NCBI RefSeq assembly: GCF_054482525.1
Contig: NZ_CM137006.1
Length of the DNA stretch: 64,000 bases
Direction: 5' to 3' (one strand)
Part shown: piece by piece, positions 17,592 to 38,313 of the stretch
How positions within the stretch are numbered: the stretch's first letter is position 1
Layout: every line of letters begins with the position of its first letter
Notes under the pieces: model-generated
What the model was told of the DNA's origin: nothing
The model's input: only the letters and a program-made list of their open reading frames with translations
Database searches by the model: none
Program-made: the position numbers and the translations under genes

Positions 17592-18602
17592 ATGAAGGCT
17601 GCAGTTGTTACGAAGGATCATCATGTTGACGTTACGGATAAAACACTGCGCTCACTGAAACATGGCGAAGCCCTGCTGAAAATGGAGTGTTGTGGTGTAT
17701 GTCATACCGATCTTCATGTTAAGAATGGCGATTTTGGTGACAAAACCGGCGTAATTCTGGGCCATGAAGGCATCGGTGTGGTGGCAGAAGTTGGCCCAGG
17801 TGTCACCTCATTAAAACCAGGCGATCGTGCCAGCGTGGCGTGGTTTTACGAAGGATGCGGTCATTGCGAATACTGTAACAGTGGTAACGAAACGCTCTGC
17901 CGTTCAGTTAAAAATGCCGGATACAGCGTTGATGGCGGGATGGCGGAAGAGTGCATCGTGGTGGCGGATTACGCGGTAAAAGTGCCAGATGGCCTGGACT
18001 CGGCGGCGGCCAGCAGCATTACCTGTGCAGGGGTCACCACCTACAAAGCCGTTAAGCTGTCAAAAATTCATCCAGGGCAGTGGATTGCTATCTACGGTCT
18101 TGGCGGTCTGGGTAACCTCGCCCTGCAATACGCGAAGAATGTCTTTAACGCGAAAGTGATCGCCATTGATGTCAATGATGAGCAGTTAAAACTGGCAACC
18201 GAAATGGGCGCTGATTTAGCGATTAACTCACGCACTGAAGACGCCGCCAAAATTGTGCAGGAAAAAACCGGTGGCGCTCACGCCGCGGTGGTGACAGCGG
18301 TAGCTAAAGCTGCGTTTAACTCGGCGGTTGATGCTGTACGAGCAGGCGGTCGTGTTGTGGCTGTCGGTCTGCCGCCGGAGTCTATGAGCCTGGACATCCC
18401 ACGCCTTGTGCTGGATGGTATTGAAGTGGTCGGTTCGCTGGTCGGCACGCGCCAGGATCTCACCGAAGCCTTCCAGTTTGCGGCCGAAGGCAAAGTGGTA
18501 CCGAAGGTCGCCCTGCGTCCGTTAGCGGACATCAACACCATCTTTACTGAGATGGAAGAAGGCAAAATCCGTGGCCGTATGGTGATTGATTTCCGCCGCT
18601 AA
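17592..18602 (+). CDS. adhP: alcohol dehydrogenase, propanol-preferring (zinc MDR family)
   Basis: ATG after AAGGAGG RBS gives 336 aa [11 protein letters not shown]...; zinc ligand motif GHEGIG. Confidence 0.9.
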
Positions 18603-18691
18603 GAGGCCTTTGCTGCGACTGCCATGTTCGGGTCGCAGCATCGCACACTCTCCAACATGAAATGGCTAAATGGATTATTGTTGCGTAGGAA

Positions 18692-18713
18692 GGAACAATA
18701 ATGATAGTGTTCC
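18692..18713. promoter_or_regulatory. palindromic putative operator upstream of yddM
   Basis: GGAACA-N10-TGTTCC perfect dyad about 35 bp upstream of the yddM start. Confidence 0.3.
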
Positions 18714-18747
18714 TGGTGAAGGAACGCTACTGAGAGTAAAGACACTA

Positions 18748-19032
18748 ATGAAAATGGCCAATCATCCCCGCCCGGGGGACATTATTCAGGAATCACTGGA
18801 CGAACTTAATGTCAGCCTGCGCGAGTTTGCCAGAGCAATGGAAATAGCTCCCTCAACGGCAAGCCGATTGCTGACCGGAAAAGCAGCTTTGACACCAGAA
18901 ATGGCGATTAAACTTTCCGTGGTGATCGGCAGTTCGCCGCAAATGTGGCTGAATCTGCAAAACGCCTGGAGTCTGGCAGAGGCAGAAAAAACGGTGGATG
19001 TGTCGCGATTACGCCATCTGGTTACGCAATAA
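18748..19032 (+). CDS. yddM: HTH (XRE/HigA-like) DNA-binding protein
   Basis: internal ATG of ORF 18670..19032 gives 94 aa [45 protein letters not shown]... Confidence 0.75.
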
Positions 19033-19062
19033 AAAAAATGGCGCTTCTTAAAGCGCCATTTT
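19033..19062. terminator. bidirectional intrinsic terminator between convergent yddM and fdnI
   Basis: AAAAAAAATGGCGCTTCTTAAAGCGCCATTTT: perfect stem flanked by A-run and T-run. Confidence 0.65.
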
Positions 19063-19083
19063 CAGCTTAAAGTTCAAAAGAGA

Positions 19084-19737
19084 TTATATCCCTTCTTCAC
19101 TCTCTTTTTTCGCTTCTGCCTTCTCGATTTCACGATACCAGCGCGGATGGTGTTTCTTCGCCCAGCGACGGCTCACCTTCCCTTCGATCATCCCTTTAAT
19201 CGATCCTTTCACCCAGAATGCCATATACATATGGATCAGGATGGCGTGGATCAGGATGATACCCGCAGCCGCGTGAATCAGCAGGCTGTAGCGAACAACC
19301 TGCATCGGGAAGTACTGCGCAAAGTACGGACGCCAGATAATCACCCCGGTCACCAACAGCACGAAAATCATGCTCATGATCGACCAGAACATCATCTTTT
19401 GCCCGGCGTTGTACTTACCGACATCCGCCACTTTGTGCTCATTGCCTTTTAATACTTCGACAATGTTCAACAGCCACGGAATATCTTTCTTATCCGGGAT
19501 GTTGTGATGCACAAAACGCACAAACATAAACATCAGCGCGACGAAAATCGCAATGCCGAAGAACGGGTGCAAAATGCGCCCCATCTGCGGCGTACCGAAG
19601 GTTTGCGTCAGCCATTGCAGCGTCGGGAAGAAGAACGAAATCCCGGACAGCGCCACCAGGAAGAAGCAAATCACCACGGTCCAGTGACAGGCGCGATCAA
19701 TAAATTTGGTGCGCACAATCATTTTCGACTTACTCAT
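19084..19737 (-). CDS. fdnI: formate dehydrogenase-N gamma subunit (cytochrome b556)
   Basis: 217 aa from [19 protein letters not shown]...; four TM helices with His ligands. Confidence 0.9.
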
Positions 19738-37419: not shown

Positions 37420-38313
37420 ATGAAACCGCAGGTGTACCACGTCGATGCTTTTACCTCACAACCGTTTCGCGGCAATTCTGCCGGTGTTGTTTTCCCCGCC
37501 GATAATCTCAGTGAAGCGCAAATGCAGCTTATCGCCCGCGAATTAGGTCATTCCGAAACTGCTTTTCTGCTGCACAGCGACGACAGCGATGTACGCATCC
37601 GCTACTTTACGCCAACGGTTGAAGTGCCGATTTGCGGTCACGCGACAGTAGCTGCGCACTATGTCCGTGCGAAGGTGCTAGGTTTAGGAAATTGCACGAT
37701 CTGGCAAACGTCACTGGCAGGAAAACATCGCGTGACTATCGAAAATCACAATGATGATTATCGTATTTCACTGGAACAAGGTCCGCCGGGCTTTGAGCCA
37801 CCGCTGGAAGGTGAAGCTCGCACGGCAATTATCAACGCGCTTCATCTCACTGAAGACGATATTCTGCCAGGCTTGCCAATTCAGGTGGCAACCACAGGAC
37901 ACTCAAAAGTGATGATCCCACTGAAACCAGAAGTGGATATCGACGCCCTTTCGCCTGATCTTGCTGCGCTGACCGCTATCAGCAAACAGATTGGCTGCAA
38001 TGGTTTCTTCCCGTTCCAGATCCGCCCAGGCAAAAACGAAACCGATGGTCGTATGTTCTCGCCTGCCATTGGTATTGTGGAAGATCCGGTGACTGGCAAT
38101 GCCAATGGCCCGATGGGTGCATGGTTGGTACATCACAACGTATTGCCCCACGATGGCAACGTGTTGCGTGTTAAAGGCCATCAGGGGCGCGCATTGGGGC
38201 GTGACGGCGTGATTGAAGTGACGGTGATAATTCGCAATAACCAACCGGAGAAAGTCACCATTTCTGGCACAGCGGTGATTTTGTTTCATGCCGAATGGGC
38301 AATTGAATTCTGA
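37420..38313 (+). CDS. yddE: PhzF-family isomerase-like protein
   Basis: 297 aa; MKPQVYHVDAFTSQPFRGNSAGVVF typical PhzF N-terminus. Confidence 0.85.
   Translation: MKPQVYHVDAFTSQPFRGNSAGVVFPADNLSEAQMQLIARELGHSETAFLLHSDDSDVRIRYFTPTVEVPICGHATVAAHYVRAKVLGLGNCTIWQTSLAGKHRVTIENHNDDYRISLEQGPPGFEPPLEGEARTAIINALHLTEDDILPGLPIQVATTGHSKVMIPLKPEVDIDALSPDLAALTAISKQIGCNGFFPFQIRPGKNETDGRMFSPAIGIVEDPVTGNANGPMGAWLVHHNVLPHDGNVLRVKGHQGRALGRDGVIEVTVIIRNNQPEKVTISGTAVILFHAEWAIEF

Follow-up and report, generated by a model that had tools for sequence, protein, structure and literature searches.

yddM of Escherichia coli as a probable autoregulated orphan HigA antitoxin gene retained after loss of a HigB-type toxin

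The yddM gene in the 64-kb stretch of DNA analyzed here (hereafter the window) is probably an autoregulated orphan antitoxin gene left behind by the loss of a HigB toxin, its product acting as dimers that repress transcription through two adjacent operators, designated O1 and O2. In this model, yddM originated as the antitoxin gene of a chromosomal HigB–HigA type II operon, which would have been arranged with the toxin gene first and situated between adhP and fdnI. The whole toxin gene would then have been lost in the lineage from which most E. coli descend, the window strain included, leaving the ancestral sigma-70 promoter and two 19-bp operators joined nearly directly to yddM. YddM dimers occupying O1, over the -35 element, and O2, over the -10 element and the start site, would repress transcription of their own gene. 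The model is carried by what is observed of gene content, polarity of change, operator conservation and purifying selection at the locus.

The orphan status, HigA family membership and structure of YddM were already known, and the finding is ordinary in this respect. Bustamante and Vidal described the ParE-2/HigA-2 pair (TA20) of strain NRG857c and reported that K-12 and HS keep the antitoxin alone (PMC7232551); TA20 of NRG857c was confirmed in this study to be the adhP–fdnI yddM locus. The re-pairing of half-sites into O1 and O2 proposed below for the yddM promoter appears not to have been described previously, and no earlier description was found of its one-to-one match with the hig promoter (Phig) of Rts1 or of the recurrent decay of the toxin in other genera. 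These are modest refinements, which leave the current understanding of toxin–antitoxin biology unaltered. The locus offers a clean, datable case of chromosomal toxin–antitoxin decay, in which the toxin goes first and the antitoxin and operators persist under selection, the retained YddM then being free to serve in anti-addiction immunity or as a plain repressor. It also accounts for the annotation of a lone "HigA family addiction module antitoxin" in K-12-like genomes, and the O1/O2 model narrows the predicted YddM binding to 48 bp.

Genomic context and family assignment

The 1 kb of sequence queried around yddM (window 18300-19300) is 100% identical to the chromosome of E. coli PCN033, whose annotation over the region lists adhP, yddM ("HigA family addiction module antitoxin") and fdnI. 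yddM lies on the plus strand at 18748-19032, with its ATG at 18748 and its stop at 19032, and encodes a 94-aa HigA-family helix-turn-helix (HTH) antitoxin whose toxin partner is absent. The upstream neighbor adhP (alcohol dehydrogenase; 17592-18602, plus strand), identified by tblastn and annotation, has its stop codon ending at 18602, leaving a 145-bp gap to the yddM ATG. On the downstream side, fdnI (formate dehydrogenase-N gamma subunit; 19084-19737, minus strand) is convergent with yddM. An earlier description of the window made from its letters alone (the sequence-only reading) had placed the end of adhP 145 bp upstream and a convergent fdnI downstream, both of which are exact in the sequence.

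The same reading had described the product as a 94-aa XRE/HigA-type HTH protein, and profile searches and structural comparison bear this out. YddM matches Pfam HTH_3 (E-value 8e-10; 39 bits against a cutoff of 23) and, among the NCBIfam models, TIGR02607 antidote_HigA (4.6e-27; 93.7 bits against a cutoff of 47.7), and it is identical at 93 of 94 positions to PDB entries 2ICP/2ICT, deposited as "antitoxin higa". According to the published description, 2ICP is HigA of E. coli CFT073, the strain whose yddM orthologue has been crystallized as HigA. Residues 7-87 of YddM also align gap-free with Rts1 HigA (4MCX). A longer gene product was considered and rejected: the yddM frame contains no stop codon between an upstream ATG at 18670 and the start, giving a 120-aa in-frame extension that runs through O1 and O2, whereas toxin-bearing orthologues start at the ATG overlapping the toxin stop. 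The 120-aa product is almost certainly untranslated, yet automated ORF callers could choose it.

Hairpins flank the gene on both sides. A GC-rich hairpin 3' of adhP (18611-18640, plus strand), identified by repeat search and alignment, has 9-nt arms (TGCTGCGAC/GTCGCAGCA) and is not followed by a T-run; its perfect 9-bp stem is kept in both solo and toxin-bearing alleles. This hairpin may serve as a 3' stabilizer of the adhP mRNA or as a terminator, and would in that position prevent transcription of adhP from running on into the yddM promoter. A terminator scan located a further hairpin in the spacer between the convergent genes yddM and fdnI (19034-19063, assigned to neither strand), with an A-run on one side and a T-run on the other. 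An Rfam scan of 18300-19300 returned sub-threshold matches only, all of them to this yddM–fdnI terminator hairpin.

Absence of a toxin gene beside yddM

The claim of the sequence-only reading that yddM has no adjacent toxin-sized ORF was examined at several levels. Among the ORFs of the 145-bp gap none is of toxin size, the longest being unrelated to a toxin, and a permissive tblastn search of the gap with the cognate toxin (word size 2, E-values up to 1000) returned only noise of 2-13 aa in place of a toxin remnant. A small toxin ORF in the upstream gap, which that reading had named as evidence against itself, was thus sought by both ORF listing and tblastn and was not found. Across the entire 64-kb window, tblastn identified no HigB homologue; a weak match of the toxin query at 37699-37767 was rejected, as the 297-aa ORF that contains it has no relation to toxins. 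Sensitive blastn searches of complete E. coli genomes with the toxin gene recovered chromosomal copies at this locus only, at most one in each, and at the DNA level no toxin gene was found in solo-type chromosomes. Because the toxin is absent from the window and present at the orthologous locus elsewhere, yddM is a member of the HigA family by descent, standing here outside any functioning toxin–antitoxin pair.

Toxin-bearing alleles and the origin of the solo allele

In E. coli Nissle 1917 and NRG857c, the gene order is adhP–toxin–yddM–fdnI, with an intact 92-aa toxin ORF whose stop overlaps the yddM start by one base; the Nissle protein is WP_000605675.1. This toxin matches the Pfam HigB-like_toxin family (3.8e-17) and aligns with Rts1 HigB, an endoribonuclease, from one end to the other (1e-31, approximately 57% identity), a C-terminal YEDYH being present in both. 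The toxin region occurs in 1329 of the 5426 complete E. coli genomes, invariably at the adhP–fdnI locus. ST131-type genomes have the toxin annotated as frameshifted, and a form shorter by 1 nt was encountered in about one third of the evenly spaced sample rows. The HigB–HigA pair of B2 E. coli (CFT073, Nissle 1917 and NRG857c, where it is named ParE-2/HigA-2 or TA20) shares with the window the orthologous adhP–fdnI locus, an antitoxin identical at 93-94 of 94 residues and the same O1/O2 half-sites; it differs in the presence of the 279-bp toxin gene and in the sequence lying 5' of O1 and between O2 and yddM.

Outgroups were scanned using one genome per species. E. albertii and an Escherichia cryptic-clade genome have the order adhP–toxin–yddM–fdnI, and at least 13 Citrobacter genomes carry the toxin–yddM pair beside fdnI, two of them also beside adhP. 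The pair was further found in Cedecea, Buttiauxella, Pluralibacter, Enterobacter, Chimaeribacter and Erwinia. The distribution of the pair, which extends from B2-type E. coli through E. albertii and Citrobacter to Enterobacterales further removed, indicates that the toxin–antitoxin operon is ancestral and that the solo allele of the window is derived.

Pairwise alignment to Nissle 1917 defined a junction segment at 18727-18747 (plus strand; CTACTGAGAGTAAAGACACTA), which is the site of the approximately 279-bp higB-type toxin gene in other strains and clearly matches the toxin-bearing allele only at its 3' CACT(A/G)ATG. Homology between the solo and Nissle alleles continues through O2 and resumes at this CACT(A/G)ATG just 5' of yddM; the left deletion breakpoint lies approximately at the 3' end of O2, and the right one somewhere in the ~20 nt preceding the yddM ATG. 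Solo and toxin-bearing alleles are unalignable 5' of O1 and over the 15-20 nt that separate O2 from yddM, and pairwise alignment gave the 15-nt CTACTGAGAGTAAAGA no confident assignment to either end of the toxin gene. Since the flanks of the two allele types differ more than one clean deletion predicts, the loss event would have been more complex, or old. K-12-like, O157 and PCN033 genomes have the same junction sequence, which, being common to all of them, is consistent with a single old toxin-loss event.

One E. coli O157:H7 strain, TR01 (locus 595-790), presents a mosaic arrangement, with B2-type sequence after the adhP hairpin followed by a solo-type O1; the 3'-terminal 47 nt of the toxin gene are joined inside the O1–O2 spacer, and O2 and the -10 element are missing. 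This mosaic, represented by one record, may have arisen by deletion or recombination in a separate event, or may be an artefact of assembly.

Damaged toxin genes beside intact yddM homologues were also observed outside E. coli. The toxin has an internal deletion in Citrobacter sp. FP75 (locus ~2310-2500) and a frameshift in C. portucalensis A60 (locus 2234-2498), toxins are degenerate in two Xenorhabdus sequences, and only the last ~14 toxin codons (…DGDAEILNLEDYH*) are left in Chimaeribacter californicus (locus ~2440-2500). From these sequences, decay of the toxin with the antitoxin kept looks independent and recurrent across genera.

Proposed operators and promoter upstream of yddM

The sequence-only reading had proposed a perfect GGAACA-N10-TGTTCC dyad, about 35 bp upstream of yddM, as the operator. 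This repeat is present at 18692-18713 (plus strand): GGAACA at 18692-18697 is followed after 10 nt by TGTTCC at 18708-18713, forming a perfect 6-nt inverted repeat that ends 34 nt before the ATG and whose spacer holds most of a -10-like GATAGT (18703-18708). Considered alone, the dyad is not significant, because a perfect 6-nt inverted repeat with a spacer of 0-20 nt occurs in 36% of dinucleotide-preserving shuffles of the 145-bp gap. It gains significance from being kept across about 27 orthologous promoters and from the larger pattern of four half-sites to which it belongs, which in its full form occurs once in the 64-kb window. When 29 orthologous promoters from different alleles and species were scored for the four half-sites, allowing at most 1 mismatch per half-site, the pattern TGTT(G/C)C-N7-GGAACA-N10-TGTTCC-N7-GGAAC(A/G) was conserved in 27. 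The two N7 spacers vary in sequence but never in length, and 10 nt separate the inner half-sites except in both C. amalonaticus genomes, where there are 9; the first half-site of Chimaeribacter matches TGTTCC perfectly. A search of the 64-kb window for TGTTCC-N7-GGAACA, with up to 1 mismatch allowed, found this palindrome at the yddM promoter only. The promoter–operator block is homologous between solo and toxin-bearing alleles, and all four half-sites and the -10 element are kept in the solo allele. A MAFFT multiple alignment that set the solo dyad against toxin coding sequence was rejected as an artefact of the long gap, as pairwise alignment with cheap gap extension places the dyad on the promoter of the toxin-bearing allele.

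Two operators are proposed from this pattern. O1 is a 19-bp palindrome, TGTTGC-N7-GGAACA (18679-18697, plus strand), whose left arm overlaps a -35-like TTGCGT (18681-18686), and O2 is a 19-bp palindrome, TGTTCC-N7-GGAACG (18708-18726, plus strand), which begins on the last -10 base and covers the expected transcription start. The N10 dyad, consisting of the right arm of O1 and the left arm of O2, most likely represents the inner half-sites of two adjacent 19-bp operators rather than one operator. This pairing is preferred because the N7 spacing is invariant while the N10 spacing varies between 9 and 10 nt, and because only N7 fits the geometry of the Rts1 HigA–operator complex; the arms of the N10 dyad are 16 bp apart from center to center, a misfit to the homologous dimer geometry. 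The earlier proposal therefore holds as to the existence of the repeat and probably gives way as to how its arms are paired.

The putative promoter reads TTGCGT-16 nt-GATAGT, the last T of the -10 element being the first base of O2. A -10-like hexamer is kept in the central spacer across species, as GATAGT in the window and as TATACT or TATGAT in distant species. A consensus scan of 18560-19120 reported no sigma-70 promoter at its thresholds, because the scan needs 4/6 matches in the -35 element and TTGCGT matches only 3/6. The TTGCGT-16-GATAGT promoter is accordingly a proposal based on conservation and on the Rts1 parallel described below. In a published SELEX study with RNA polymerase holoenzyme, a promoter peak is listed for yddM in the adhP–yddM region.

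Comparison with characterized HigA systems

The Rts1 system (Proteus vulgaris; PDB 4MCX and 6CHV; PMC12266136) resembles the yddM family in having the toxin gene first and in its proteins, HigA being 40% identical to YddM and HigB approximately 57% identical to the 92-aa toxin. It differs in being plasmid-borne with the toxin present, and the C-terminus of YddM is 10 aa shorter. An Rts1-type hig promoter was taken for comparison from an IncT plasmid encoding an identical HigB (locus 440-488). As proposed for yddM, Phig contains two 19-bp palindromes, with O1 holding the -35 element (TTGCAC) in its left arm and O2 sharing its first base with the last of the -10 element (TATAGT). The Rts1 operators have the sequence TATT(G/A)CAC-N3-(G/A)TGTAATA, with half-sites TATTACAC-N3-GTGTAATA as against TGTTCC-N7-GGAACA for yddM, and the consensus TnTTnC-N7-GnAAnA is common to both. 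Spacing is closely comparable, with operator starts 30 bp apart in Rts1 and 29 bp in yddM, and with ~12 nt from O2 to the toxin ATG in Rts1 and 11 nt in Nissle.

The parallel extends to the residues that contact DNA. In the Rts1 complex, as reported in a preprint, the sole residue in base-specific contact with the DNA is Arg40 of HigA, which touches the G of TGTA in both strands; the contacted G falls at positions 6' and 14 of the 19-mer, which are the conserved C6/G14 in the yddM operators. YddM keeps the DNA-contact residues of Rts1 HigA, namely S23, T37, S39, R40 and K45. Rts1 HigA, the closest characterized relative, represses approximately 211-fold by itself, and the toxin does not increase repression; since this HigA represses without its toxin, a toxin-less HigA would be expected to be a competent autorepressor. 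On the strength of this analogy and of the conserved sequence, we infer that YddM binds O1 and O2 and represses its own transcription, a reading to which the published SELEX peak and the DNA binding seen for YddM by ChIP-exo in K-12 (see below) lend indirect support.

Other members of the family differ more in their operators or loci. P. aeruginosa HigA (PaHigA) and P. putida GraA are, like YddM as modeled here, HigA-family repressors acting on palindromes in their own promoters, though of remoter homology, with E-values of ~1e-8 to 1e-11; their palindrome is TTAAC GTTAA, and two dimers bind cooperatively on opposite DNA faces. PaHigA regulates further genes, for example mvfR, and by analogy is a precedent for an antitoxin as a wider regulator. 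YbaQ of E. coli K-12 (PDB 2EBY) is likewise an XRE/HigA-like protein (E-value 7.5e-9 to YddM), whose DNA binding has been confirmed by ChIP-exo; it is a distant paralogue of 113 aa encoded at another locus. At the ybaQ locus, K-12 and HS are reported to have the antitoxin alone and pathogenic strains also a toxin or its pseudogene (PMC7232551, Figure 3A), a case parallel to yddM.

Selection on yddM and possible reasons for its retention

At least 80% of the yddM query region is covered in 5361 of 20,395 records, corresponding to 5360 of the 5426 genomes. Among the sampled records, all 39 that cover yddM have it annotated, the 40th row matching fdnI only. The gene is intact in all alleles examined, with a dN/dS of 0 to 0.1 against toxin-bearing alleles and of about 0.04-0.1 against Citrobacter. 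Solo genes, from the window and K-12-like genomes, differ from most toxin-bearing yddM genes of Escherichia by 5-13 synonymous and 0-1 non-synonymous substitutions; selection within the solo lineage was assessed from three solo alleles. The solo YddM of K-12 and the paired antitoxin of Nissle are the same RefSeq protein (WP_000781370.1), from which the window copy differs by R90H. yddM is thus under strong purifying selection.

These results bear directly on whether yddM might be a neutral remnant, a functionless and decaying leftover accompanied by a relic or chance repeat. Toxin–antitoxin loci commonly decay, as illustrated here by the frameshifted toxin of ST131-type genomes and the independent damage in several Citrobacter and Xenorhabdus, and chance would place a single 6-nt inverted repeat in roughly one third of such gaps. 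However, essentially every E. coli sampled has an intact, annotated yddM, the differences between alleles are nearly all synonymous, the solo protein of K-12 is the same as the paired antitoxin of Nissle, and the solo allele conserves the four half-sites and the -10 element. A neutral remnant is therefore very improbable, being largely refuted by operator conservation and dN/dS. Little probability likewise attaches to the view that yddM is not truly an orphan, with a cognate HigB-type toxin encoded elsewhere in PCN033 and YddM acting on it in trans. In its favor, the window covers 64 kb of the PCN033 genome, and E. coli carries other RelE/HigB-family toxins; on the other side, tblastn of the window came back empty, and the blastn survey of complete E. 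coli genomes placed the toxin at this locus only, with none in solo-type chromosomes. An autoregulated orphan antitoxin hence remains the preferred reading, and the sequence-only reading, which had reached a similar view, is upheld on the orphan status of yddM and on its retention with a predicted autoregulatory site, and revised as to the dyad, which most likely consists of the inner arms of two N7 palindromes.

Two further proposals concern why this orphan antitoxin gene has been kept. Under the anti-addiction proposal, which is compatible with the autoregulated orphan model, the solo antitoxin persists to neutralize HigB encoded by plasmids or mobile elements, averting post-segregational killing. 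Judged from its sequence, solo YddM could neutralize the cognate HigB: the protein is identical to the paired antitoxin in K-12 and 1 aa different in the window, so the toxin-binding surface is expected to be intact. HigB homologues occur frequently on enterobacterial plasmids, being found at the protein level in 514 plasmid records, 98 of them from Escherichia, and at the DNA level there are 25 plasmid matches in E. coli assemblies; the strong purifying selection on yddM also speaks for such a role. Against it, YddM is only 40% identical to Rts1 HigA and the toxins ~57% identical, and cross-neutralization is usually limited between toxin–antitoxin pairs so diverged. On balance, we consider this role conceivable and rather doubtful. 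A co-opted role, in which YddM was recruited after toxin loss to regulate other genes and selection acts on that function, can be advanced only tentatively. In K-12, ChIP-exo confirmed YddM as a DNA-binding protein and yielded a palindromic motif (Gao 2018; PMC6237786), and the published K-12 data suggest further YddM binding sites on the chromosome. When yddM was knocked down by CRISPRi, expression of motility genes fell, as did that of tsr, an earlier reported binding target; genetic interactions with stress regulators have been published, and a yddM deletion was hypersusceptible to epetraborole, although this phenotype was uncomplemented. Conversely, the operator palindrome, at up to 1 mismatch, is confined in the 64-kb window to the yddM promoter, the protein is undiverged from its paired form with no adaptive change visible, and the published effects come from high-throughput screens. 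As reasons for retention, immunity and co-opted regulation are non-exclusive, and it is possible, as a speculative extension, that the "toxin-free" state of solo yddM is itself selected, with a HigA under tight autorepression conferring immunity to HigB modules that enter the cell and regulating tsr and motility to a minor extent. If this were true, toxin loss with the antitoxin kept would be recurrent and convergent in Enterobacterales, including E. coli, Citrobacter, Xenorhabdus and Chimaeribacter.

Variation in the intergenic regions around yddM

The spacer between yddM and fdnI (window 19033-19083) varies in length among strains, measuring 51 bp in the window and in ST131 and ~230-410 bp in K-12-like, O157 and Nissle genomes. 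The extra DNA starts with REP-like sequence (…GCCTGATGCGCTACG…) and constitutes a variable REP/BIME insertion 3' of yddM. In E. coli E06 (NZ_CM143910.1, 2595129-2596839), an IS200C-family transposase is annotated inside the adhP–yddM–fdnI region, which is ~710 bp longer.
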